Positions 7,397-58,212 are shown, counted from the stretch's first letter. The stretch is DNA of 64,000 bases from Patescibacteria group bacterium (GCA_018970245.1 JAGWWT010000002.1:24067-88066); one strand, 5' to 3'. The notes: generated by a model from the sequence alone, not told the origin. Numbers and translations: made by a program.

Positions 7397-9763
7397 TCAT
7401 CTACCGTTATACAACCTCTTCGCGCCCTCCCCTACCTGCATCCACGCGAACGACCAGCCCCAAACGAGCGCGGCATAGCCGATCGAGATCGGCGCCGTGA
7501 ATAGCCCGAAGACCGACATCGCCGTGGCGATGAGCTGCGTCAGGCTGGTCGCCAGGATGACCTGCTTCGAGGGCAGGAACTTGTACCATGGCTTCTCTGT
7601 GTGCGCTATATATATGAGCATATGCCCCGAGACCGTCAGCTTGAGGAAGAACAGCGTCTGGACTGCCGCCCAAGGCGCATGCAGGACCGCTACGGCGAAC
7701 CAGAGCAGGAACATGCTATTCGCGATCCCTACGAAACCGAAGATCGTCGAGAGCGTGAAGCGCCGCCTCGCGTCGATCGAAGCCGGCGCCTGCGGCACGG
7801 TGACGCGATCGTACGCGAGAGTGATGATCGGGATGTCGTTCAAAAGGGCTATGAGGATGATCTGCACCGGCGACAGCGGATATGTATGGAAAATGAAGCC
7901 GATGACGGCGATCGTGACGATCAAACGGAAGCTCTCCGAGATCCTGTAGACCGAGTAGTTGTACAGGCGCACGAATATCTTGCGAGCCTCGATTATCGCG
8001 TCCTTGATCACCGCGATGCCTGATGACGACAAGACTATGTCAGCCGCGCCTTTCAGAGCATCGACTGCGTTCGATACAGCGATCCCGACAGTAGCCGCTT
8101 TGACTGGCGGTACATCGTTCACGCCGTCGCCAGTCACAGCCGTGACGAAATCGCGCTTGGCCAGCGTGACTATGTCGTACTTATCCTTCGGCATGACTTC
8201 AGCGAATCCAGCGACGCCGCTGAAGCCGCTCCTCACCCCTTCCGGGTCGCGATCGAGCTCGGACCGTTTGACGATCCGGCCGGAAAGGCCCAGCTCGGAG
8301 GCCACCTGGACGGCGACGTCATACCCGTCTCCCGTGACCATCTTGACCGACACGCCATGATCGGTCATGAAACCTATAGTCTCCTTGGCTTCAGGCCTGA
8401 TCTCGTCTGCCAGGAAGAACACCGCCAACGGCAGCATCTTAGCTTCGCTGCCATCCGGCGAAACGGCCAGCGCCAGAGCGCGGTAGCCCTTCTTGGCCGC
8501 TTCTGATACGAGCGAGTCGTATCTCACGGCCGCCTGCGCCTCCATGGCCGACAGCTCCCGGATGGTCTGCGGCGCCCCGAGCGAGGCGGCCACTCGGCGG
8601 CCATCATGATCGAAAAAGACGGTCGCCCTCTTCCTTTCGGAATCGCCTGGGATGAAATCAGCGACCGTCATCGCAGATGCCCCATGCTTCTCGGCTTCAT
8701 CGGCCACGGCCGCCGCCAGCGGATTGATATCGGTGCGAGGAGCGGCTGCGGCGGCGATAGACCATATGGTCTTCTCATCCCAGCCTGTGCCAAGCGGCGA
8801 TGCGAGGAGCGATACGCCAGCCACGGTGATGCGGTTCTCGGTGAGCGTGCCCGTCTTGTCCGACAATAGCAGGTTCACGTTCGCCAGATCCTCGAGCGAA
8901 GAGAGCCTCCGGACTATGACGGACTTCTTTGCCAGCTCCATCACCCCCACCGATATGATGAGCGTCATGACCGTAGGCAGAGCGACCGGTATGCCGGCTA
9001 TAAGGAGAGAGATGTCCAGCGTGCCTATCTCCGAGATCGGCAGCCGCGCCGCCAAGAGCACGCCAGTGAGCGCTATCATGACGATGATGCTGATCACAGA
9101 CAGGAATCGCGACACAGAAAGGATGTCCTTCTCGAGGTTGCTGCGCCCGCGCGACGGATCGACCATCGTGAGCGTCTTGCCGAAATAGGTCCGGCTTCCG
9201 GTGGCCGTCACCTGCGCCAATGACAACCCTGTGGAGATGAAGGAGCCTGAATAGGCCGACTCCCCCACCGCCTTGCTCTTGGGAAGCGACTCTCCGGTCA
9301 CCACCGAATCGTTCACTGTCAGGTTCCTGGCCTGAAGGAAGGACACATCGGCCGGCACGAGGTCGCCGACGCCGAGCCTGATGACGTCGCCCAAGACTAA
9401 GTCGGCCGAGCGGATCTCCTTCCACTCTCCGTCGCGCATGGCTTTGACGATGACCGCGAGCTTAGCCTTGAGCTTCTCGATGGCGGTGTCGGCCTTGGCT
9501 TCGTGCCAGGCGCCGACGCCGACGTTCATGACGAAGAGCGCGCCGATGATCCAGGCGTCTTCTTCATGTCCGCCGAAGACGGAAAGGCCGCCAGCGGCGA
9601 TGAACATGACTGACATCGGCGACGCCACCCAGTGCCATATGCGCATCAGGATGGATTGCTTCTTCTCCTCTATGAGGTTCGGTCCGTATTCCTGCAGGCG
9701 CTTGGCCGCTTCTGCAGAGGTCAGGCCTATGTTTTTTTCGATTGGCGGCATTTGTCGCGTCAC
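7397..9763 (-). CDS. P-type ATPase, type III (H+/Mg2+ transporting-like)
   Basis: 788 aa; DKTGTLT phosphorylation site, GDGVNDVPPVK hinge, 10 TM layout, N-terminal GLTSAEAAKRL typical of PMA1/MgtA-like pumps. Confidence 0.85.
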   Translation of the reverse strand: MTRQMPPIEKNIGLTSAEAAKRLQEYGPNLIEEKKQSILMRIWHWVASPMSVMFIAAGGLSVFGGHEEDAWIIGALFVMNVGVGAWHEAKADTAIEKLKAKLAVIVKAMRDGEWKEIRSADLVLGDVIRLGVGDLVPADVSFLQARNLTVNDSVVTGESLPKSKAVGESAYSGSFISTGLSLAQVTATGSRTYFGKTLTMVDPSRGRSNLEKDILSVSRFLSVISIIVMIALTGVLLAARLPISEIGTLDISLLIAGIPVALPTVMTLIISVGVMELAKKSVIVRRLSSLEDLANVNLLLSDKTGTLTENRITVAGVSLLASPLGTGWDEKTIWSIAAAAAPRTDINPLAAAVADEAEKHGASAMTVADFIPGDSERKRATVFFDHDGRRVAASLGAPQTIRELSAMEAQAAVRYDSLVSEAAKKGYRALALAVSPDGSEAKMLPLAVFFLADEIRPEAKETIGFMTDHGVSVKMVTGDGYDVAVQVASELGLSGRIVKRSELDRDPEGVRSGFSGVAGFAEVMPKDKYDIVTLAKRDFVTAVTGDGVNDVPPVKAATVGIAVSNAVDALKGAADIVLSSSGIAVIKDAIIEARKIFVRLYNYSVYRISESFRLIVTIAVIGFIFHTYPLSPVQIILIALLNDIPIITLAYDRVTVPQAPASIDARRRFTLSTIFGFVGIANSMFLLWFAVAVLHAPWAAVQTLFFLKLTVSGHMLIYIAHTEKPWYKFLPSKQVILATSLTQLIATAMSVFGLFTAPISIGYAALVWGWSFAWMQVGEGAKRLYNGR

Positions 9764-11400
9764 GAGCTCTTCACCAGATGGGCGAACGCATAATCGAGCG
9801 TCCCGCCGACTTTCTTCCCCGGATTGAAGATGCCCTTCGGATCCCAGATCTTCTTGACCTCTTCGAACAAGCGGTAGACCTCTTCACCGTACTGCATCTT
9901 TATGAAAGGCGTCCTGATGATGCCGTCATTGTGCTCGCCTGTTATGGAGCCGTGGAACTCGTGGACGAGCTCGTAGACTTTCACCGACAGATCCTTGATG
10001 ATCTGGTGCGCGCGCTCGTGGTCGTTCAGATTCATGAGCGGTATGATATGGAAATTGCCGTCCCCGACGTGGCCGGCGATCGTGTATGTGAGCTCTTTTT
10101 TGTAAGGATCTAAGACCTCATAGAGCCTCGGCAAGAATCGGGGCAGGCTCATCGGCGGCACGACGAAGTCGTCTATGAACGGCGCTGTGCGCACGCCATG
10201 GACATGCTTCCGGAGCATATTGAAGCTCTCGCGGCGGATGACCCAGTACTTGTGCTCGTCTGATTCCGTCTTGGTGACTCGCGTCTTTTCGTGGAAAGCC
10301 TTTAGAGACATCTGCGCATCCATGGCTGCCTTCAATGCTTCCTCGTCAGTGTCGGCAGTGAACTCCGCCATGAGGACCAGCTTCGGCAGCCTGGCCGATT
10401 CGAGGACAGCCAGCATCTCCGGCACGAATTCCAATCCTAAAGTGATGACATTGCCGCCCATCTGCTTCATGAGCTGCGGCAGGAATTTGATCGCCACCTT
10501 CAAGGTCTGATCGTCATACGACTCGAAGCTCTCCGGCTTGTACTCGAGGATGTGCGTCGCCGTCTCTCCGAGCTGGTCCAGGCTGTTCAGGAAGACGACG
10601 AGAAGATGCGAATGCGTCTTCGGTTTCACGAGCCCGAACTCGATCTCCGTCACCATGCCGAGCGTCCCTTGAGAGCCCACGATCATTCTGCACAAATCGA
10701 ACAACCCGTCGTGCTCGACGTTCCACAGATAATAGCCGCAGGAATTCTTGGAGACGATCGGCTTGGCTTTGGCGAGGAGGTCGCGATTGCTGTCGATCAG
10801 CGCGCGCATCTTCCCATAGACCTCCGCCTCGAATCCCGCTCCTTCCTCCTTCCTCCTTGCTTCCTGCTCCCCCAACGGCTTGAACTCATGCTCCTCACCA
10901 TCCGCGCATACCATCTTCAGCCGCCGAATGTATCTTTCCGTCTTGCCATAGGTCAAGGTCTTCTCTCCGCCGGAATTGTTGGCGACCATGCCGCCGACCG
11001 TGCAGAGCTCGCGCGAAGCTGGATATGACGGCAAGATCTGCCCGCCCTTCTCGAGCGTGGCCTTGTCGAAGTCGCGATAGTAGACGCCCGGTTCCGTGAC
11101 CGCGAAGCCGTCGCTGACTTCCTTGATATGGTTGAAATATTTCGTGAACGAGACGACGACTGACTCAGTGAGCGGGCCGCCGCCCATATCGGTGCCAGCC
11201 GAACGCGCCGTGAGCGATACGCCCGGATGGGCGTCTGCGTACTTCACCAGCGCCTTCACGTCGTCGGCATCTTTCGGCGAGACTACCGCCTGGGGCCGGA
11301 CCTCGAACAGGCTGGCGTCATGGCTGGCCGCAGCCAATGCCTCGTCGCTCGCATCGACGTCGCCTTTGACCAGCTTCGAGAGATCGTCTTGAATGGACAT
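9760..11400 (-). CDS. FAD-linked oxidase (GlcD / D-lactate dehydrogenase-like)
   Basis: 546 aa; FAD_binding_4 N-terminal region (ARSAGTDMGGGPL) and FAD-oxidase C-terminal domain; 4-nt overlap with the ATPase gene. Confidence 0.8.
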   Translation of the reverse strand: MSIQDDLSKLVKGDVDASDEALAAASHDASLFEVRPQAVVSPKDADDVKALVKYADAHPGVSLTARSAGTDMGGGPLTESVVVSFTKYFNHIKEVSDGFAVTEPGVYYRDFDKATLEKGGQILPSYPASRELCTVGGMVANNSGGEKTLTYGKTERYIRRLKMVCADGEEHEFKPLGEQEARRKEEGAGFEAEVYGKMRALIDSNRDLLAKAKPIVSKNSCGYYLWNVEHDGLFDLCRMIVGSQGTLGMVTEIEFGLVKPKTHSHLLVVFLNSLDQLGETATHILEYKPESFESYDDQTLKVAIKFLPQLMKQMGGNVITLGLEFVPEMLAVLESARLPKLVLMAEFTADTDEEALKAAMDAQMSLKAFHEKTRVTKTESDEHKYWVIRRESFNMLRKHVHGVRTAPFIDDFVVPPMSLPRFLPRLYEVLDPYKKELTYTIAGHVGDGNFHIIPLMNLNDHERAHQIIKDLSVKVYELVHEFHGSITGEHNDGIIRTPFIKMQYGEEVYRLFEEVKKIWDPKGIFNPGKKVGGTLDYAFAHLVKSS

Positions 11401-45456: not shown

Positions 45457-45861
45457 TCAAAGACCCGTTCTCATGTCGTCGAACAGCTTTTGCTGATCTT
45501 GCATCATCTGATCCATCTGCCGATTAAGATAAGCCTGCTCCTGTGCGGCTTGCGCCTGCATCTTATCGAAATCCGCCCGGCTGATAGCCGTCGTCGTCGC
45601 ATAGGTCTTTCCATTCTCGCTCACAATACGGCTCTCCACGCCGTAAGGAGCATCCATAGTCAGCGCTGTAGTCGTGGCGCCGCCGTCTTTTATTATGACC
45701 TCGGTCGATCCAGTCGATGATGCTGACGGCATCGATCGGCTCTCGATGCTGACATCGCTTGAGATCCCGGTCGGTATAGAGAAGCTGGACGGCTGCTGGA
45801 TCCTGCTAGGCATGCTGCAGAATACGAACGGCAGAAGGCTGCAAAGTAATGTGTTGAACAT
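45457..45861 (-). CDS. hypothetical secreted protein
   Basis: 134 aa, signal peptide, Gln/Met-rich C-terminus. Confidence 0.4.
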   Translation of the reverse strand: MFNTLLCSLLPFVFCSMPSRIQQPSSFSIPTGISSDVSIESRSMPSASSTGSTEVIIKDGGATTTALTMDAPYGVESRIVSENGKTYATTTAISRADFDKMQAQAAQEQAYLNRQMDQMMQDQQKLFDDMRTGL

Positions 45862-45966: not shown

Positions 45967-48111
45967 TCAGCTGAGCTTCGCTCTCCGCAGGAGGAGCGCA
46001 TTCAGCACCACTATGACCGAAGAGGCGCTCATGAGCAGTGCCGCCCATTCTGGACGGAGCAGGATACCGAACGACGGATAGAGGATGCCGGCAGCTATCG
46101 GGATGGCGAACACGTTGTATCCGGCAGCCCAAGCGAGATTCTGAACCGTCTTTCGGTTGGTCTTCTTGGACAAAGAGATGGCCTTGACGACGTCGAGCGG
46201 GTCGCTCCTCATGAGGACGATCTCCGCCGACTGGACCGCCACGTCGGTCCCGGCGCCTATGGCAATGCCCACGTGCGACTGGGCCAGAGCGGCCGCATCG
46301 TTCACGCCGTCGCCCACCATGGCGACCACATGGCCTTCGTCTTGAAGCTGCTTGACCTTGTCCACTTTGTCCTCCGGCAGGACGCGCGCGAACACAGTAT
46401 CGATCCCCAAGCCTTCGCCCACTTCATCGGCCACATCCTCCGTATCGCCAGTGAGCATGGCCGTCCGGATGCCCATGCCGTGGAGCTTCTCTATAGCCGC
46501 CTTCGATTCTTCTCGCACGACGTCTTCCAGGAATATAACGCCGGCGAATGCACCGTCTATCGCGACATATGCAGGAGTGCCGGTCTCGTCGCTCTCTGAA
46601 GCGGATACCGCGATCTCCTGCTCATCTAATAGGCGCTTATTGCCGACCAGGACTCTCTTGCCATCGACCGTCGCCGAAGCGCCCTTGCCAGAGAATGACC
46701 TGAAATCCTTGGCTTCGGGGACAGACAATCCCCTCTTCTTGGCTTCGTCGACTATGCCCGCTGCTATCGAATGCTGGGAATGCACTTCGACTGCCGCAGC
46801 CAGCATCAGCAATTCATCCTGACTTTCGACTTTATGGACTTTGTGACTTTCGACTTCATTATCCCGGCTTTCGATTATTTTTTTGACTCCGAATTCCCCT
46901 TTCGTGAGCGTCCCTGTCTTGTCGAAGACTACATAATCCAGCTTGCGAGCGGCTTCCAGACCCTTCATGTCTTTGATGAGGATGCCATTCCTCGCGCCTA
47001 AAGCCGAGGTTATCGATGTGACGGTCGGGATGGCAAGGCCAAGAGCATGAGGACATGCGACGACGATAGCGGCCACCGCCACGGTCGCGGCGAATATCGC
47101 TCCATGCGGCGAGGCGAAGCACCAGAATATGAAAGAGCCGATGCCCGCGGCTACAGCTACATAGAAAAGGACCGCTGCCAATCTGTCTGCGACCAGTTGG
47201 ACTCGGGGCTTGGAAGCCTGGGCACCGCGCACGAGGTCCATGATCTGCGAAATGGCCGTGTCCGAGCCGACCTTCGATACTTCGACGGTGAGCGAGCCAT
47301 CCTCGTTGAGCGTGCCGCCTATGACGGCGTCTCCGGGCTTCTTCGCGACGGGCTTGGACTCTCCTGTGATCATGGCCTCGTTCACCGAGCTCTCCCCCGC
47401 CATGGCCTTCCCGTCGATCGGGATCTTCTCGCCAGGCTTCACCAATATACGGTCGCCTATCTTGAGCTCGCCCGTTCCGACATCGACGGCGTCCCCGTCC
47501 CTCAACAGATGCGCCGACGGCGGGATCAATCTCGCCAATTCGGTGAGAGCTCCAGTCGCTCCTCGCACCGCCCTCATCTCCAGCCAGTGGCCGAGAAGGA
47601 AAACAGAGATCAGGGTGGACATCTCCCAATAGAGCGATTCGCCTGGGAAGAGGAACGTCGTCGCCACAGAGAAGGCATAAGCCACGGCTATGCCGAATGC
47701 CACCAAGGTCATCATGGCTGGAAGCTTCCTGGAGAGCTCGCCTCTGGCGCTCTTGAAGAAAGGCCAGCCTCCATACAAGAAGACGACTGTGCCGAGCGCG
47801 AAGGTGACGATCTCTTTGCCAGCGAACGGCACGCCAAACCCTAGCCACTTCTCGATATTCGGCGACAATGCCATGACGAGGAGCACGAAAGGCAGCGTCA
47901 GCCAGAATCTCTGTTTGAAATCCTGCTCTGCGCCTTTGCCATGCCCGGCATGGCCTTCTTGGCTTTCCTGTCCGCCATGCATCCCGCCTCCCATATCCAT
48001 CAGCACGAGATCCATGCCGCATTTCCGGCATTCGCCTGGAGCATCGGATATCACATCCGGGTCCATCGGACAAGAATACAATCGCTTATGGCCAAGATGC
48101 CCGCGCTCCAT
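45967..48111 (-). CDS. copB: copper-translocating P1B-type ATPase (CopB-like, CPH motif)
   Basis: N-terminal YSCPMDPDV...PGECRKCGMDL metal-binding motif, His-rich stretch, TM6 ACPHALGLA, DKTGTLT, GDGVNDAAAL. Confidence 0.85.
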   Translation of the reverse strand: MERGHLGHKRLYSCPMDPDVISDAPGECRKCGMDLVLMDMGGGMHGGQESQEGHAGHGKGAEQDFKQRFWLTLPFVLLVMALSPNIEKWLGFGVPFAGKEIVTFALGTVVFLYGGWPFFKSARGELSRKLPAMMTLVAFGIAVAYAFSVATTFLFPGESLYWEMSTLISVFLLGHWLEMRAVRGATGALTELARLIPPSAHLLRDGDAVDVGTGELKIGDRILVKPGEKIPIDGKAMAGESSVNEAMITGESKPVAKKPGDAVIGGTLNEDGSLTVEVSKVGSDTAISQIMDLVRGAQASKPRVQLVADRLAAVLFYVAVAAGIGSFIFWCFASPHGAIFAATVAVAAIVVACPHALGLAIPTVTSITSALGARNGILIKDMKGLEAARKLDYVVFDKTGTLTKGEFGVKKIIESRDNEVESHKVHKVESQDELLMLAAAVEVHSQHSIAAGIVDEAKKRGLSVPEAKDFRSFSGKGASATVDGKRVLVGNKRLLDEQEIAVSASESDETGTPAYVAIDGAFAGVIFLEDVVREESKAAIEKLHGMGIRTAMLTGDTEDVADEVGEGLGIDTVFARVLPEDKVDKVKQLQDEGHVVAMVGDGVNDAAALAQSHVGIAIGAGTDVAVQSAEIVLMRSDPLDVVKAISLSKKTNRKTVQNLAWAAGYNVFAIPIAAGILYPSFGILLRPEWAALLMSASSVIVVLNALLLRRAKLS

Positions 48112-48124
48112 ATGATTATTGCGA

Positions 48125-48817
48125 TCATTTCTTCGCGCGCTTCAGAGCCCATCCGACGATGACGACAGCTCCCACCAAAGCCAGCGCCCACAGGACCGCC
48201 ATGAATATCGTGCCGCCCCAGCCCCAGCCGTATCCGAATCCTGGCATACCGAACGACGATCCCCAACCCATCATGCCATAGCCTCTGCCGAAGCCATTCC
48301 AGCCCATCATGCCGTATCCGCCATCGCTTCCAAATCCGCCCATCATCGGCCCGAAGCCCATCATCCCGGCCGGGAATGAGACATTCTCGTCGCAGCCGGA
48401 GAAGCGCTCCCCCATGGCGATGTGCATCTGGTCGTCGTAAGACTGCCCGTAGCGGCTGACGATATAGGCGTCCATGGCGTCGTGGCCTGATCCCATCATC
48501 AAGCTCATATAATATTCTCCGAGCGAGCTGTAGTCGCTCTGTGAAAGGCTGCTGCATGAGACGGACTTGGCTTGGAGCTTCTCGGCGAGAGCCTGGCCTG
48601 CGAGCTCTTCTGCATCCATAGCCGTGCTGGTCCCGGAAGAGGCGGCGGTCGATGTGGCTGAACCATAGTATCCGCCCATCATGCCTTGGCCGTAGCCATA
48701 TCCAGAGTCTCCGTCATAGAACCCGCCCATCATCTGAGCGTGAACCGCCTGCGTGGAAAGGAGCCCGACCATGGCCGCGAACGAAATCGATAATGCGTAC
48801 GCTGTGATCTTCTTCAT
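48125..48817 (-). CDS. secreted Gly/Met-rich protein with C-terminal TM anchor (putative Cu-binding)
   Basis: signal peptide; repeated MMGG/YGMMGW motifs; 4 nt before the copB start. Confidence 0.5.
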   Translation of the reverse strand: MKKITAYALSISFAAMVGLLSTQAVHAQMMGGFYDGDSGYGYGQGMMGGYYGSATSTAASSGTSTAMDAEELAGQALAEKLQAKSVSCSSLSQSDYSSLGEYYMSLMMGSGHDAMDAYIVSRYGQSYDDQMHIAMGERFSGCDENVSFPAGMMGFGPMMGGFGSDGGYGMMGWNGFGRGYGMMGWGSSFGMPGFGYGWGWGGTIFMAVLWALALVGAVVIVGWALKRAKK

Positions 48818-48866
48818 GTGATCTTTGCGATAAAAATGGATTATTAAAAGCGATCTATATTCGGCG

Positions 48867-49133
48867 CTATTTCTGCGCCAATCTATAGACCTTCAGGATC
48901 TCTTCGGTCGCTCTCTTCTCGTGCCCGTGCCTGATGTCATGGGCGACATGGGTCTCTAGATGGTTCCTCAGGATCAGGCTGCCGACGCCGGCCAAGGCCT
49001 CGCGGACCGCTTCGATCTGCGTGATTATATCGACGCAGTATTTTTCCTGATCGACCATCTCTTCTATGCCCCTTATCTGGCCGCCTGCTATAGACAGGCG
49101 CCTCTTCGCGCTCTTTTTTATATCCTTCTTCAT
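48867..49133 (-). CDS. csoR: CsoR/RcnR-family metal-sensing repressor
   Basis: RLSIAGGQIRGIEEMVDQEKYCVDIITQ...H..H pattern of CsoR (DUF156); start at internal ATG. Confidence 0.8.
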   Translation of the reverse strand: MKKDIKKSAKRRLSIAGGQIRGIEEMVDQEKYCVDIITQIEAVREALAGVGSLILRNHLETHVAHDIRHGHEKRATEEILKVYRLAQK

Positions 49134-49431
49134 GTCCTGTATGATACCCCCAGGGGTATCGGCGTCAAGCAGGCCTGTGGATAGGTGCAGGCCGTCGGCG
49201 CACGAACCGAAAAGGCTCGGCTGACCGGGCCTTCCGGTACCTCTGTTCCCGGCCCGCGTAACCTGACGCACCGGGAGCTAGGCTCAATAAATGGCGACAG
49301 ATGGACCTCAAATGTAGGTCGACCTGCCGTATGACACCGCTAACAATCCTTTCAAAAACCGCACCTTGCATTACTGCTTGGCCGTCCCCAGGATTGCGTC
49401 CCCTGGGACCGCGATGCCATATCTAACCTAC

Positions 49432-50046
49432 CTACGTTAACACCTGAGACGACCGGAGGTTTCGGTGCGCCCCGGCCTGCGCCTTGGGCTTGGCTTTGGC
49501 CTTGGTTTGCGGCATAGTCCCGCATTCCTGTCTGATCTTGTTCCTGATCCTGAAGAGGAGCAGCTTGGCGCCAGAGACTGTGCGGTGTATGCGCTGCGCT
49601 ATCTCCTTGTTGTGCATGCCGCGGATGTAGGCCATGCCCAGGACGGACCGCTCGAATGGCGAAAGATGCTCGATGGCCCGGACCAAGTCCTCGCGCTCCA
49701 GATAAGCCTTGATGTCGCTCTTCTCGTCGGCCATTTCCGGCATCTGCTCTTTTTCGATATGGCTCCATGGCACGCTCTTTATGCGCCTGTAGTGATTGAC
49801 GAGCAGGTTGTGCGCGATGGTCATGAGATAGGTTATGTATAGATATCCCTCTTCCCTGAAAGCCGGAAAATGCTTCAAGGCGCGGAGGAACGTATCCTGG
49901 GCGAGATCCTCGGCCAGCTCGTGGTCATAACCGACGCGATTCAGGAAATAGCCGTACACGCGCCCGTAATACGCATCGTACAAAGCCCCGAAATCGCGCG
50001 GGTGCAAGGATGACTTATGAAGGATGGCTGGATCGGCGGCTCTCAT
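49432..50046 (-). CDS. RNA polymerase ECF-type sigma-70 factor
   Basis: region 2 DLAQDTFLRALKHF, region 4 HTH NKEIAQRIHRTVSGAKLLLFRIRNKI; Lys/Ala-rich C-terminal tail. Confidence 0.8.
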   Translation of the reverse strand: MRAADPAILHKSSLHPRDFGALYDAYYGRVYGYFLNRVGYDHELAEDLAQDTFLRALKHFPAFREEGYLYITYLMTIAHNLLVNHYRRIKSVPWSHIEKEQMPEMADEKSDIKAYLEREDLVRAIEHLSPFERSVLGMAYIRGMHNKEIAQRIHRTVSGAKLLLFRIRNKIRQECGTMPQTKAKAKPKAQAGAHRNLRSSQVLT

Positions 50047-50177: not shown

Positions 50178-50909
50178 TCAAACCGATGTCTGCCACATGG
50201 ATTCGAACAGCAGCTTCATGGTCCCAGCGATCGCCTGGTCCTTTATGAGTATGCCGAATGGCCGCTTCTCATTCATGGAAATCATGGCGGTCGTGTCGGC
50301 GTATATGAGGTTGGCATTCTCGATGCGCGACCCTTGGGGCAGGAACCTGGTCAGCCGCAGCTCCTTCGGGTCGGCGGATCTGAGCTTCGCGGAAGCCGGC
50401 GTCTTGTCGGTGATGAGCCTCATTCGCAAGAACCGCTTGCGCCGCCGCTCTATGAGATCGGATACGTAGTCTTCCCCGAGGAGATCGATCCAGCTGTCCC
50501 AGGGCAAGAATGCCGATATCTCGTGCTTGGTCTCGATCATGTCGTCGAGTATGAGCTTTATCTCTCCGGCGCCGGTATATGTGATGATCCGCGGCGCAGC
50601 AGCCTCTGCGGTCTGCTTGGTCCTGAGCTTCGGCACTATCCCCTCGAATGCTTTGAGCTTCTCAGCCAAGCCGGCAGCGATCTTCTCTGGATCGACGGCC
50701 ACCCAGTGGAGCCTATGGCGCCTGGTATATGAATTGACGAGGCCGTGCTTGTGCATACGGCGGAGCACTTCCTCGGCTGTGGTAAGAGGTATGTCGGTCC
50801 TATCAGAAAGCTCGGCCGTCGTGCTGTCGCCGGACTCCAACGCCGAAATATAGAGCTGTATCTCCCTAGGATGGAACCCCACATATTCCATTGTGGAGCG
50901 CACATTCAT
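50178..50909 (-). CDS. TrmB-family transcriptional regulator
   Basis: N-terminal HTH LYISALESGDSTTAELSDRTDIPLTTAEEVLRRMHKHGLV plus C-terminal effector-like domain. Confidence 0.6.
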   Translation of the reverse strand: MNVRSTMEYVGFHPREIQLYISALESGDSTTAELSDRTDIPLTTAEEVLRRMHKHGLVNSYTRRHRLHWVAVDPEKIAAGLAEKLKAFEGIVPKLRTKQTAEAAAPRIITYTGAGEIKLILDDMIETKHEISAFLPWDSWIDLLGEDYVSDLIERRRKRFLRMRLITDKTPASAKLRSADPKELRLTRFLPQGSRIENANLIYADTTAMISMNEKRPFGILIKDQAIAGTMKLLFESMWQTSV

Positions 50910-50955: not shown

Positions 50956-51420
50956 CTATTGTGGAACGGCCTGTTTCTTGCGCATCAGCCAGAGGACGAT
51001 GATGACGGAAGCTATCGAGATCGCGAAGCTGCCGACGACGTCTGCCGTGTGATGCACGCCTACGTAGACGCGGCTGACAGCGACGAGGATCGCCAGGACC
51101 CAGAGCGCCGCTCCCATCTTCCTGTTCCAGACGGTCCCTATCATCGCTATGGCGGAGACGAGGAGAGCATGATCTGACGGGAATCCGTTGTCTGCCGCGT
51201 GCGGTACGAGGGGCACGAAGTTCCCGACGACGAACGGCCGAGGATCATATATGAGGAGGCTGCCGATCTTGGCGAGAATGAAGGCCAGCACAGCCGAGCA
51301 GACCGCGAATATGATCATGCGCTTCCAGCCGGCCCGAGGCTGCATGAAGAAATAGACGGCCAGAATGAGCGCTGGCAGAACGAACAGGTATTTGGCGCAG
51401 AAGATGAAGAAAGAGTCCAT
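50956..51420 (-). CDS. PAP2-family phosphatase (BcrC/YbjG-like undecaprenyl-diphosphatase candidate)
   Basis: PAP2 motifs PSDHA and SRVYVGVHHTADV; 4 TM. Confidence 0.75.
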   Translation of the reverse strand: MDSFFIFCAKYLFVLPALILAVYFFMQPRAGWKRMIIFAVCSAVLAFILAKIGSLLIYDPRPFVVGNFVPLVPHAADNGFPSDHALLVSAIAMIGTVWNRKMGAALWVLAILVAVSRVYVGVHHTADVVGSFAISIASVIIVLWLMRKKQAVPQ

Positions 51421-55252: not shown

Positions 55253-56344
55253 ATGATAGACACAGAAAGGCTATTGCAGCTTTCGCGGCAATACAGAACG
55301 CCGCTGGAAGATACGATGTTTATATCGCTCAACATGAGCGGTGTGAGCTTCAAATGCGATTACAACAGGATGCGGACAGCCGTAAGGCTGGAAAATCATG
55401 AGCTGTTCGGATATGCGGAGGAACGAAATGAACTTGAATATTATTTCGCCCTGCCGATAAACGACTCTAGCCCGTTCCGGATATCCGGCGACGTTCTGTC
55501 GTTAGGAGACACGGCGATAGGCTCCACCGTCGGAGCGACGGAAGATATCTGCGATTCGCACTATCCGAGAAGGCGAGGCACTTCGCTGAATCTTAACCCC
55601 AATTCTCGGACATCTTGCCGCGGTTGCGAATTCTGCTACACCGCGTATCAAGTGCCGTGCGACAGGAAAAAACTGAGGGATCGCCGAGATCTCGAGGAAT
55701 TTTTCGAGGGGTGGATGAAAGGACGATGCTTATCGGATCTGTCCGGTCTCATCCAAGTATCAGTCGTGACAGGATGTTACGACGGCGGCAAGGAAGTATG
55801 CCGTTTCATCTTGGAACTAAGGAGCGTATTGAGCCGATACGGATTCAACGGTTCGATATTCTATCTTGGTTCTCAGTTGACGACGGAAGACGAATTGAGC
55901 CGCTTGGAAGCGGCCAAGCCAGTCAGTGTATGTTATTCGCTGGAGACGTTCGAGAGACGCGAGTTGTTGCGAGATAAAAAGCGCTTACTCAGCCTTAATA
56001 GAGCCGTTGAGCTCATGGATTTCTCCAGGGAGTCAGGATACGAGACCAGCTTTTCCTATGTCATTGGCTTGGAGCCTTTGCACATAGTGGGCAAGCACTT
56101 CTCTTATCTGAAAGATCACATCAACAAATTCCCCATCATCAACACTCTGCAGATACACAAATATCACAGAGCCGAATTGGCCGATCCGAGCGTTGACGGA
56201 CCGGAATATTACTTGAGAGCGAGACGGCTTCTTGAGCAGATATTCTCGGATACGCCCATGAGGCCGCTGGTTTGGGAGAATTATCGCAGCTTATGGTTTC
56301 TGACCTTCAACAACGAACCGCTATATGGTTGGAGAACGCCTTAG
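55253..56344 (+). CDS. radical-SAM-like protein with non-canonical CX2CX2C cluster motif
   Basis: SRTSCRGCEFCYTAY (Cys triad with aromatic before the third Cys) about 120 aa from the N-terminus; 363 aa. Confidence 0.4.
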   Translation: MIDTERLLQLSRQYRTPLEDTMFISLNMSGVSFKCDYNRMRTAVRLENHELFGYAEERNELEYYFALPINDSSPFRISGDVLSLGDTAIGSTVGATEDICDSHYPRRRGTSLNLNPNSRTSCRGCEFCYTAYQVPCDRKKLRDRRDLEEFFEGWMKGRCLSDLSGLIQVSVVTGCYDGGKEVCRFILELRSVLSRYGFNGSIFYLGSQLTTEDELSRLEAAKPVSVCYSLETFERRELLRDKKRLLSLNRAVELMDFSRESGYETSFSYVIGLEPLHIVGKHFSYLKDHINKFPIINTLQIHKYHRAELADPSVDGPEYYLRARRLLEQIFSDTPMRPLVWENYRSLWFLTFNNEPLYGWRTP

Positions 56345-56364
56345 ACCTAAGCTTGGACACTAAC

Positions 56365-56397
56365 AGCCATGCGACATCCGTCCGCATGGCTTTTTTA
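56365..56397 (+). terminator. rho-independent terminator between convergent units
   Basis: AGCCATGCG-N9-CGCATGGCT then TTTTTT. Confidence 0.75.
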
Positions 56398-56409
56398 TGT
56401 TCTAATTAT

Positions 56410-56871
56410 CTAAACATCTATCTCCTCGCCATCCGGAAATATTTCTGATATTTTTTCAGACGTTTCGCGCAATTGTCCGTCGAACAGCAGGTAATTCCCC
56501 AATTGCGTAAATGGCACCCATGCGTACGACCTCACTTCGCCTTTCTTCGGTCTGACATCGTATGTACCGACCAAGCGAAACCCGAAAAAGTATCTTTCCG
56601 AACCGTCGTATTTTTTGCCGTCGCGATTCATTGTGATCACCTTGAATCTGAAACGCACGGGTACATGACTCCGTCCGACTAACTCGAGGGAACTTTTTTC
56701 TATGCCGAGTTCCTCGCGCACTTCTCGATACACGGCATCTTCCAATGTTTCTCCCTGCTCGACTCCGCCGCCCGGAACGGCGAAATACTTATTTTCAAAA
56801 GACTCCAGATTGACAAGGAGAAATTCCTTATTACTGTTCATTATGAGAGCTGATACGCCTTTTCTGTACAT
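56410..56871 (-). CDS. NUDIX hydrolase
   Basis: Nudix box GGGVEQGETLEDAVYREVREELGI. Confidence 0.8.
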   Translation of the reverse strand: MYRKGVSALIMNSNKEFLLVNLESFENKYFAVPGGGVEQGETLEDAVYREVREELGIEKSSLELVGRSHVPVRFRFKVITMNRDGKKYDGSERYFFGFRLVGTYDVRPKKGEVRSYAWVPFTQLGNYLLFDGQLRETSEKISEIFPDGEEIDV

Positions 56872-56901
56872 GGCGATAGTATAACAAAGTAGTAATTACA
56901 G

Positions 56902-57654
56902 TTATATTCTCCTCCTCAACACCGTAATGTTCCGCCCGCCTGGATAAGGTTTCTTGGCCGCATCGAAATCGCTGAAGTCGGAGACGTGTTCCCATTTACT
57001 GGTAGCCTCCGCTTTGGCGATAAAATCATTGATTCTATATAATTTCCTTGTCTCGGTATGTTCTATCACTTTTTTCTCGCCGTTCTCCTCTATCTCCAGT
57101 ATTATCCTTGCGTCAGATAACCCATTTCGCTCATCTATCCATTTAGGATCATAAGTGGTGATCACCTTTACACCGTCTCGCTCCATCTCCCATGTCTGGA
57201 TTCCGAAATCTTCCGGAAAGAAAAGTACGGCTCCGTCCAGAAAGTACAGACCTCCGCCCCTTACAGAGTGTGCCACCGAATCCATATGGCTCTGCAATTC
57301 ATGGTCATCAGTCACATAGAACGAGCCCAGGAAAAGCAAAGCGCAGTCGGCTTGTTTATTCGTGCGGAAGTTTCTTAAATCTCCTCGGATGATTTCGGCC
57401 TTGAGTCCCAAATCTTCTATAGTCTTTGTTGAATATTCGATCATCTCCTCATTCTGTTCCAAACCGACATAGTCGTAGCCTCGCCGGCACAACTCGCTCA
57501 TGTGCGGACTATTACCGGACGCTATCTCCAAGACTGTCTTTACCGGTATCAGCGATTCATTCTTTATGATTTGCTCGAGGAAATCTACTTCCTTCGCGAT
57601 ATCTCGGAATGAAAAAGCTATATCGTAATATTTTGGATTATCGTAGACATCCAT
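56902..57654 (-). CDS. class I SAM-dependent methyltransferase (TylM1/small-molecule N- or O-MTase-like)
   Basis: YYDIAF...VLEIASGNSPH motif I, acidic motif II. Confidence 0.7.
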   Translation of the reverse strand: MDVYDNPKYYDIAFSFRDIAKEVDFLEQIIKNESLIPVKTVLEIASGNSPHMSELCRRGYDYVGLEQNEEMIEYSTKTIEDLGLKAEIIRGDLRNFRTNKQADCALLFLGSFYVTDDHELQSHMDSVAHSVRGGGLYFLDGAVLFFPEDFGIQTWEMERDGVKVITTYDPKWIDERNGLSDARIILEIEENGEKKVIEHTETRKLYRINDFIAKAEATSKWEHVSDFSDFDAAKKPYPGGRNITVLRRRI

Positions 57655-57675
57655 AGGGTCGTAATATTTACAGCT

Positions 57676-58203
57676 CTATACTAAATACTCTCTAATTTCC
57701 TCAAAATCCTCGTATGAGTGATCGTCGCCTTTGCACACAATAAGATCCAGTGACCCAAATTTTCCCTCAGCTTGCTCTCTCCTTATATCTTCCGCCGAAG
57801 CCACGGGATCATGATCATTCTGAATGAGCGTCGTCGGCACGGAATAATCAGATGACCAAGCATCAATATCAAAACGGTTCTTCCTAGCCCATTCCGGAGG
57901 CAAACCTAGAAATACGCACCTGCCTATGCGTTCCGCCGCAATCGTTTTCGAATGAATGGAAAGCATGAACAATACGGTACCTATGGACTTGGCAAGAATA
58001 GCAATATCTCCACTGAAAGATCTCGCCGTATTTGTCAATTTCTTCAGTTCAATCTCCATATCTATCAACTCGCCGCCACTTGCCCAGTGGTCATAATATT
58101 GGACGGAAATTGATTTGAAATCGTCGGCAAAATAATCGCGCGCTTTTTCCGCCCATTCCTTATTTGACGCGCCGTTGCCTGGAATGATCATGAGGTTGCT
58201 CAT
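57676..58203 (-). CDS. alpha/beta-hydrolase (YdeN/RBBP9-like serine hydrolase)
   Basis: 175 aa; IIPGNGAS start and AKSIG nucleophile-elbow-like motif. Confidence 0.55.
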   Translation of the reverse strand: MSNLMIIPGNGASNKEWAEKARDYFADDFKSISVQYYDHWASGGELIDMEIELKKLTNTARSFSGDIAILAKSIGTVLFMLSIHSKTIAAERIGRCVFLGLPPEWARKNRFDIDAWSSDYSVPTTLIQNDHDPVASAEDIRREQAEGKFGSLDLIVCKGDDHSYEDFEEIREYLV

Positions 58204-58212
58204 AATTTCGTG

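Follow-up and report, generated by a model that had tools for sequence, protein, structure and literature searches.

The window analyzed here is a stretch of 64,000 nucleotides (nt) from a Patescibacteria group bacterium (GCA_018970245.1, JAGWWT010000002.1:24067-88066). Calling of open reading frames (ORFs) shows three of them, all in the same direction, that fill positions 45967-49133 on the minus strand. These are csoR, which encodes a repressor, a gene for a glycine- and methionine-rich protein (the Gly/Met protein; its gene and family are termed GM), and a gene for a P1B-type ATPase. The csoR-copB frame is already known, and CsoR-controlled copper efflux operons are textbook matter. The novelty lies in the middle gene, which represents a new, widespread and unannotated family. 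The reading proposed here, which is held with moderate confidence, is that the locus is a copper (possibly silver) stress operon and that the Gly/Met protein, induced through CsoR and tethered to the membrane, binds copper outside the cytoplasm. If it does bind copper, the protein would be a structurally new type of copper-handling partner that serves P1B pumps outside the cytoplasm, and a widespread "hypothetical protein" would acquire a functional name.

The Gly/Met protein and its relatives

The Gly/Met protein contains 44 Gly and 23 Met residues among its 230 amino acids (aa), and displays the sequence MMGG three times and GYGMMGW twice. It is 100% identical to the recorded protein KGI45_02560, whose source is a Patescibacteria (candidate phyla radiation, CPR) metagenome-assembled genome (MAG). 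An earlier reading of this region (the original prediction) had described a signal-peptide protein that is built from MMGG/YGMMGW repeats and ends in a transmembrane (TM) helix. The Gly/Met composition and the repeats are present, as are a signal-like helix at the N-terminal end and a hydrophobic helix, followed by KRAKK, at the C-terminal end. However the protein is not built from repeats; its central 80 aa are non-repetitive, conserved and helical.

The segments of the protein are listed in Table 1. The signal peptide contains no Cys and thus there is no lipobox. The A-Q-M junction at its end is conserved across the family; in the alignment of homologues A27 hardly varies and the following QM is kept. 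The disordered linker that follows is 29% Gly, 11% Met and 16% aromatic residues and then becomes rich in Ser, Thr and Ala, a composition which is also conserved in homologues. The second, membrane-proximal linker is 38% Gly, 17% Met and 23% Tyr/Trp/Phe, and it has MMG at four positions and GYGMMGW at two.

A full-length AlphaFold2 (AF2) model, built with a 33-sequence alignment, displays four helices in aa 69-140 with a predicted local distance difference test score (pLDDT) greater than 90. The domain modelled alone by AF2 has a pLDDT of 93.2 and a predicted template modelling score (pTM) of 0.84. The model suggests a type-I topology, i.e. a cleaved signal peptide, an extracytoplasmic body and a C-terminal membrane anchor.

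Residue conservation was counted over 307 domain sequences and is given in the numbering of the window protein. C88 and H132 are conserved in 100% of the sequences, G100 in 99%, H112 and G124 in 98%, M104 in 97%, G109 in 96%, M115 in 94%, Y102 in 93%, R138 in 85% and M135 in 79%. C142 is conserved in 77% and is shifted by one position in a further 21%. Cys, His and Met, residues of the kind that serve as ligands of soft metals, are among the near-invariant positions of the domain. The conserved folded domain is a stronger candidate for a metal site than the Met-rich repeats on which the original prediction relied.

A sequence search with the Gly/Met protein gives 50 homologues at E<=1e-3 (best non-self match, 2e-73). 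A search with the domain profile at E<=1e-3 matches the representative sequences of 1200 clusters (50% identity), 866 of them at E<=1e-10. A genome scan, using one genome per GTDB species, gives 53 loci. Nearly all of these are labelled CPR and come from the Parcubacteria, Microgenomates, Saccharibacteria, Peribacteria and WWE3 groups. The remaining loci are mostly from DPANN archaea (Aenigmatarchaeota, Diapherotrites, Burarchaeum), and a few are in bins with other, unverified labels. The family is found mostly in the CPR and DPANN, organisms for which very little has been learned about the envelope or the handling of metals. The layout of signal peptide, domain, Gly/Met (G/M) linker and TM helix is readable in 47 ORFs (56 in the cluster), in most of the 53 loci. 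The linker between domain and TM helix in these 47 ORFs has a median length of 40 aa and is 22% Gly and 17% Met.

A cytoplasmic SHOCT domain (PF09851) is found after the TM helix in approximately 20 ORFs across the 53 loci by motif search and in 4 of the 33 aligned homologues by Pfam, whereas Pfam shows none in the window protein. In ARMAN and Cuniculiplasma archaea, islands with copper ATPases have been described as having SHOCT and DUF302 genes at their side (PMC5498576), and in Haloferax silver induced a membrane protein with SHOCT (PMC10694973). Unlike these small SHOCT membrane proteins, the GM family has as its defining element the extracytoplasmic helical domain, which is previously undescribed. 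Some unusual ORFs were also seen, each of which may be real or an artefact of gene calling. Homologue P0039 has an ArsR-type helix-turn-helix (HTH) domain fused at its N-terminal end and SHOCT at its C-terminal end, homologue P0051 carries the conserved domain twice in tandem, and an 897-aa ORF (L038:7914-10607) extends beyond the SHOCT domain.

The Gly/Met protein has no match in Pfam or NCBIfam. Pfam analysis of the 33 homologues at E<=1 shows no informative family except SHOCT and ArsR, each in a few of them at most. Searches of PDB sequences, with the single sequence and with the profile, give no match, and Foldseek searches of the PDB with the full-length and domain models give nothing at E<1. 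This agrees with the original prediction, which had seen no characterised homologue. The source names of 10 diverse family representatives are all "hypothetical" or "putative membrane protein", and no prior description of the family was found in the literature on CsoR/Patescibacteria, SHOCT/copper and methionine-rich CPR proteins. An AhpD/carboxymuconolactone decarboxylase-like fold was considered for the domain, but only about half of the domain aligned, at 9% identity, with no CxxC and no Foldseek match at E<1, which is too little for a relationship to be claimed.

Control region, repressor and probable copper pump

The gap between csoR and GM is 49 nt and that between GM and the ATPase gene is 13 nt. 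A scan for terminator-like sequences shows no site in either gap, nor from csoR to the start of the ATPase; all three minus-strand sites are inside the ATPase ORF. The original prediction had proposed a tight minus-strand operon, and the three ORFs fall at exactly the limits it gave, with short gaps between them. No tRNA gene and no Rfam family at the gathering threshold was found within the window, and therefore no RNA element is indicated in the operon region. Because the operator is inside the promoter and the intergenic gaps are short, the sequence supports the view that csoR, GM and the ATPase gene would behave as one CsoR-controlled unit.

The sigma-70-like promoter upstream of csoR has 10 of 12 consensus matches for TTGACG/TATCAT. 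The CsoR-type operator, GATACCCCTGGGGGTATC, has perfect 8-nt arms and a 2-nt centre and is of the form TAC-N8-GTA, with tracts of C and G. It lies over the promoter spacer and reaches into the start of the -10 hexamer. The original prediction had pointed to the region 49134-49431 for a CsoR operator, and this perfect palindrome is indeed located there. A search with the pattern ATACCCCNNGGGGTAT (<=2 mismatches) finds the operator as the sole match in 64 kb, where 0.05 would be expected by chance. Thus the operator properties of the Cu(I)-sensing CsoR subgroup, i.e. a G/C-tract pseudo-palindrome, TAC/GTA flanks and overlap with the promoter, are all displayed at the sequence level.

CsoR sites of Streptomyces lividans are of the TAC-X9-GTA type with a G-tract pseudo-palindrome, e.g. 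TACCCCCTAGGGGTA (PMC3902906), and the CsoR site of Staphylococcus aureus copX is ATACCctggGTGGGTAT (PMC10233261). The window box resembles both. The spacing between TAC and GTA is N8 in the window and N9 in most relatives, and the pattern TACCCNNNNGGGTA gives no match in the related loci, whose real box spacing is longer.

Equivalent boxes can be read upstream of csoR, GM or the ATPase gene in approximately 20 related loci. One locus (L025) has the box directly before the GM gene although csoR is 4 kb distant, and another (L001) has a second box directly before the ATPase gene. The boxes directly upstream of the GM gene in relatives indicate that CsoR controls this gene in several lineages. 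The order TTGAC, operator, TATNNT, ATG is repeated in L001, L002 and L003. In the window, as in these three relatives (L001 at ~4690, L002 at ~4670, L003 at ~135), the csoR start codon follows the -10 hexamer at a distance of 6-7 nt. As the csoR ATG at position 49133 is only 7 nt beyond the -10 hexamer, the operon mRNA is probably leaderless or nearly so.

The csoR product displays a match to the CsoR/RcnR family PF02583 (DUF156) with 84.8 bits against a cut-off of 22.8 and an E-value of 5.4e-24 in Pfam, and thus is the repressor named in the original prediction. The closest PDB sequences are 3AAI (Thermus thermophilus CsoR, E 1e-13), 4M1P (Geobacillus) and 2HH7 (Mycobacterium tuberculosis). 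Alignment to these relatives places the ligand positions at C33, H58 and H62, i.e. x-C-H-H. The window CsoR therefore departs from the commoner x-C-H-C, the fingerprint of the Cu(I)-sensing subgroup (Cys36/His61/Cys65 in M. tuberculosis numbering), and it has His at the position that aligns with Cys65 of the M. tuberculosis protein. The C-H-H set is also found in 3AAI, the best PDB match, and T. thermophilus CsoR is a validated copper repressor of the copZ-csoR-copA operon (PMC10318464). All CsoRs linked to the GM family among the relatives have the motif NHLxTH[VI].

The ATPase scores best with the copper P1B subfamily, TIGR01511 (E 3e-172, NCBIfam). Its best full-length PDB relatives are the Cu(I) CopA structures 7R0G, 3J09 and 3RFU, and the ATP-binding domain of Archaeoglobus fulgidus CopB (3SKX) aligns with an E-value of 3e-66. 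P1B-3 pumps are defined by CPH, GYN(X)4P, MSXST and a His-rich N-terminus of 30-100 aa (PMC5552934). The window ATPase has CPH (C353-P-H) and GYN(X)4P (N658LAWAAGYNVFAIP; N-x5-GYN-x4-P at 658), and further motifs are DKTGT397, GDGVND600 and MSASS at 694. In the last of these Ser replaces the final Thr of MSXST, and the linked pumps of relatives show both MSxST and MSxSS. Thus the P1B-3-like ATPase with CPH of the original prediction carries two of the TM signatures expected of it, and a variant of the third. Its N-terminus, which was also described as His-rich, has a modest His content, with five His in the first 57 aa, together with a G/M/H-rich stretch and the heavy-metal-binding domain HMBD. 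What had been taken for a zinc-ribbon-like CxxC...CxxC segment is in fact this HMBD (PF19335, E 1.8e-11), with the sequence C14PMD...C28RKC31. It has Asp for the usual His, and relatives have CPMH (L011). The G/M/H-rich stretch, MDMGGGMHGGQESQEGHAGHGKG, is located at aa ~38-58 of the cytoplasmic N-terminus (47938-47997) and resembles the linkers of the surface protein.

Genomic linkage, proposed function and alternatives

Neighbouring genes were counted by tblastn within 8 kb of the 53 species-representative loci. A P1B ATPase is found in 29 of the 53 and CsoR in 20. DUF302 is found in 14, or in 17 when clustering is used, and at least one of the three is found in 37. For a gene that occurs about once per ~1-Mb genome, linkage by chance should not exceed a few per cent. 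The linkage of the GM family to metal genes is strong, but it is not universal. Among 25 linked pumps that were typed, 20 are CPH and five CPC, and 17 of the CPH pumps have the HMBD. Conservation of the ORF next to the pump gene in related genomes was the point on which the original prediction depended, and the GM ORF is kept beside csoR and CPH-type ATPases in many of them.

Every close relative examined shows csoR-GM-ATPase, or has csoR and GM divergent. The arrangements found are csoR-GM-(small membrane protein)-ATPase, csoR-GM-ATPase, and csoR divergent from GM-DUF302-...-ATPase. The pair csoR-GM also occurs alone, as a second copy in one genome. In GCA_028865095.1 (L001/L011, L002/L015) the csoR-GM pair is found twice, both times with a separate CsoR box, and a pump is located beside only one of the two pairs. 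By analogy, pairs that lack a pump fit a role that does not strictly need an adjacent ATPase, as has been reported for CopL.

Other recurrent neighbours are DsbA-like, VKOR, DoxX, DUF2127, PAP2, DUF1573, DsrE-like and ArsR/PadR genes. A 486-aa multi-pass membrane protein with no Pfam match (L047:6345-7805) adjoins the GM gene in 11 of the 53 loci, and these loci, e.g. those of Daviesbacteria, are mostly without csoR and pump. In archaeal and some CPR loci (L008 of Woesearchaeota, L044, L058) the GM gene is found beside PadR or ArsR regulators, and the nearby genes encode DUF302, DUF411 (CopG-like) and YHS-domain proteins and CPC pumps, not csoR and CPH pumps. The GM family seems to have been recruited to metal islands with differing regulators.

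The proposed function of the operon is as follows. Apo-CsoR would bind GATACCCCTGGGGGTATC over the spacer and -10 hexamer and block transcription of the operon. Cytoplasmic Cu(I), bound at C33/H58/H62, would release CsoR, and csoR, GM and the ATPase gene would be co-transcribed. The CPH-type ATPase would then export copper from the cytoplasm, with the HMBD and the G/M/H-rich segment as the cytoplasmic metal-binding region of the pump. The Gly/Met protein would be exported, its signal peptide removed, and the chain tethered by its C-terminal helix at the outer face of the membrane. A copper site may be present in the four-helix domain, drawn from C88, H112, H132, C142 and Met104/115/135, and the Met thioethers of the two flexible Gly/Met/aromatic linkers may provide a second binding of low affinity. 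As a sponge or an acceptor, the protein would keep exported or incoming copper off the membrane and surface proteins. The original prediction placed the protein in the periplasm or at the surface; because the organism is a Patescibacteria MAG, "extracytoplasmic" or "surface" is a safer term than "periplasmic".

In function, the nearest known counterpart would be CopL of S. aureus. This Cu(I)-binding lipoprotein is anchored in the membrane and exposed at the surface, it is encoded with a P1B-3 pump under CsoR, and it has been proposed to bind extracellular copper and to limit copper (re)entry (PMC11672702; PMC10233261). The copBL/copXL loci of S. aureus resemble the window locus in that CopL is likewise membrane-anchored and adjoins a P1B-3 CPH pump (CopB/CopX), and in that CsoR represses through an ATACC...GGGTAT box comparable to the CsoR-type box of the window. 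However CopL is a lipoprotein of DUF1541 domains, whereas the Gly/Met protein lacks a lipobox and matches neither DUF1541 nor any other Pfam family; DUF1541 is also not among the Pfam matches of the 33 homologues at E<=1. The Gly/Met protein differs further in its C-terminal TM anchor, its helical Cys/His/Met domain and its G/M linkers. The relation to CopL is one of analogy with no homology.

The Met-rich copper proteins CusF, PcoE/SilE, CopK, CopC and CopM are extracytoplasmic and belong to operons for copper resistance; their ligands for Cu(I)/Ag(I) are Met, His and sometimes Cys. PcoE and SilE are largely disordered. No match to the CusF, CopC, CopK, PcoE-SilE, CopM (DUF305) or CopG (DUF411) families was found in 33 members of the GM family in Pfam at E<=1, and no Met-rich copper protein of the PDB matches the Gly/Met protein in sequence or fold. 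The proteins of the CusF/PcoE/CopK group are soluble periplasmic proteins of diderms, whereas the Gly/Met protein is membrane-tethered and found in the CPR/DPANN.

The window operon shares with operons of the csoR-copZ-copA type (Bacillus subtilis, S. lividans, T. thermophilus) an autoregulated CsoR, an operator with TAC/GTA and G-tract, and a P1B pump. It differs in that copZ, or any chaperone with an HMA domain, is lacking and the N-terminus of the pump is instead the HMBD PF19335. In addition, the operator is TAC-N8-GTA where that of S. lividans has N9, and the window operon has the Gly/Met gene as an extra gene.

Several points weigh against a copper-binding role of the Gly/Met protein. 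We infer copper binding or chaperone activity from linkage, CsoR regulation and the inventory of Cys, His and Met residues only, as we do the identity of the metal, the binding residues, the topology, and whether the protein accepts copper from the pump or acts independently. C88 and C142 may simply form a disulfide, and the proposed ligand set is based on conservation and not on spatial proximity. The C-H-H-type CsoR of Thermus responded to several metals in vitro, which makes copper specificity uncertain. No ATPase, CsoR or DUF302 is found within 8 kb in 16 of the 53 loci, and other neighbours are thiol-redox or unknown membrane proteins. Flexible Gly/Met-rich tails occur with no metal role, e.g. 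the GGM repeats at the C-terminus of GroEL, and adjacent MM pairs differ from the classical Cu(I) motifs MxxM and MxM.

These 16 loci are also consistent with the Gly/Met protein having a generic role in the envelope or in cell structure that does not involve metal, so that it owes its operon position to co-inheritance in small syntenic genomes, and G/M-rich low-complexity segments do occur in non-metal proteins. However the linkage spans Parcubacteria, Microgenomates, Saccharibacteria and DPANN archaea with varied gene order and orientation, which argues against passive synteny. CsoR boxes are found directly upstream of the GM gene, and the invariant Cys, His and Met residues would need an explanation. 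A generic role is thus considered very improbable. The module could also serve another metal (Ag, Zn, Cd, Ni or Co) that the Gly/Met protein binds. The repressor is C-H-H rather than the Cu-typical C-H-C, RcnR (Ni/Co) uses C-H-H with an N-terminal His, and NCBIfam RcnR matches the window CsoR at E 5e-10; CPH pumps were moreover long assigned to Cu(II) and their specificity is debated (PMC5552934). However the window CsoR does not have the His3 of RcnR (its N-terminus is MKKDIKK), and its closest solved C-H-H relative, T. thermophilus CsoR, is the copper repressor validated in the study cited above (PMC10318464). The operator is of the TAC/G-tract/GTA type of copper CsoRs, and the ATPase, with GYN and MSxS as signatures of the Cu type, obtains its best score with the Cu subfamily. 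Another metal is thus improbable.

Regulation offers a different explanation, in which the Gly/Met protein senses metal outside the cell, or acts as a regulatory partner, and signals through the TM helix to a cytoplasmic tail or directly modulates the ATPase. The cytoplasmic SHOCT domain of approximately 20 relatives would suit such a role, the ArsR-type HTH fusion of P0039 has the layout of a membrane-bound one-component regulator, and ArsR or PadR genes adjoin GM in several archaeal and Microgenomates loci. A sensor nevertheless appears unlikely. In the window protein the tail is limited to five basic residues and there is no output domain, and CsoR with its operator already accounts for regulation. 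The ArsR fusion is a single metagenomic sequence that could be a gene-calling fusion, and SHOCT has no established signalling role (PMC3581485). The Dsb/VKOR neighbours and the weak AhpD-like fold match would be consistent with an Scs-like thiol-disulfide envelope-repair factor, in which the invariant Cys pair is redox-active and protects or repairs surface proteins with copper-misoxidised cysteines, and the G/M linkers hold unfolded clients; this is judged quite unlikely.

The preferred reading, an extracytoplasmic copper binder, may be extended. The domain may be an undescribed extracytoplasmic metal-binding fold which, with "fly-casting" linkers, provides the main surface copper defence of ultra-small host-attached CPR/DPANN cells and accepts Cu(I) from HMBD/CPH pumps. 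This extension is tentative, and we hold it with less than even confidence. If it is true, the Gly/Met protein does the job that the unrelated CopL and CusF do in other lineages. As the domain is only ~80 aa and should be soluble, copper binding would be cheap to test.

Flanking genes and other features of the window

Table 1. Positions of the operon, its control elements, protein segments and upstream genes in the 64-kb window
Feature	Coordinates	Strand	Description
csoR	48867-49133	-	88 aa from ATG at 49133
Gly/Met-rich protein gene (GM)	48125-48817	-	230 aa; stop codon included
P1B ATPase gene, P1B-3-like (CopB-type)	45967-48111	-	714 aa
Sigma-70-like promoter	49141-49168	-	-35 TTGACG (49168-49163), 16-nt spacer, -10 TATCAT (49146-49141)
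CsoR-type operator	49143-49160	strand-neutral	palindrome, from reading of the sequence
Signal peptide	48737-48817	-	aa 1-27, MKK...AVHA/QMMGG; helix aa 2-21 in AF2 model
N-terminal disordered linker	48623-48736	-	aa 28-65; pLDDT <50 for aa 23-63
Conserved helical domain	48383-48622	-	aa 66-145, ~80 aa, four helices
Membrane-proximal disordered linker	48224-48382	-	aa 146-198; pLDDT <50 for aa 157-198
C-terminal TM anchor and basic tail KRAKK	48128-48223	-	aa 199-230; helix aa 200-229, pLDDT 85-95
HMBD (PF19335)	48004-48078	-	ATPase aa 12-36; 44.2 bits, cut-off 23.6
CPH motif	47047-47055	-	ATPase aa 353-355
Extracytoplasmic function (ECF) sigma factor	49432-50046	-	directly upstream of csoR (Pfam)
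TrmB-like regulator	50178-50909	-	upstream of csoR (Pfam)
PAP2 phosphatase	50956-51420	-	upstream of csoR (Pfam)

An ECF sigma factor is found near the GM family in only 2 of the 53 loci. A role of the Gly/Met protein as anti-sigma factor to the ECF sigma encoded upstream was considered and rejected, as adjacency to the sigma gene is not conserved and the topology is reversed. An anti-sigma factor is expected to have an N-terminal cytoplasmic sigma-binding domain followed by a TM helix, whereas the Gly/Met protein has a signal peptide, an extracytoplasmic body and a C-terminal anchor. PAP2 and DUF2127 genes recur near csoR-GM in close relatives.

Downstream of the ATPase gene, a 134-aa ORF at positions 45457-45861 was considered as part of the module and was rejected, as it has no relatives in any related locus and is unrelated to the 134-aa genes of L001 and L019. 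In several relatives the gene after the linked ATPase encodes a membrane protein of ~134 aa that has a CPF...C motif but matches no Pfam family (L019:4577-4981, L016 at ~10613-11005, L014 at ~10800-11189 and L001 at ~8547-8843), and the window does not have it.

The region 56000-64000 of the window has a GC content of 0.42-0.48, compared with 0.55-0.60 in the remaining window. A ResIII/SNF2-type helicase (61313-63658, on the minus strand) is encoded there, as are a histidine phosphatase, a NUDIX protein and two methyltransferases, along with several further ORFs that have no Pfam match. This low-GC segment may be horizontally acquired or related to restriction/defence, or may represent a binning or assembly join.

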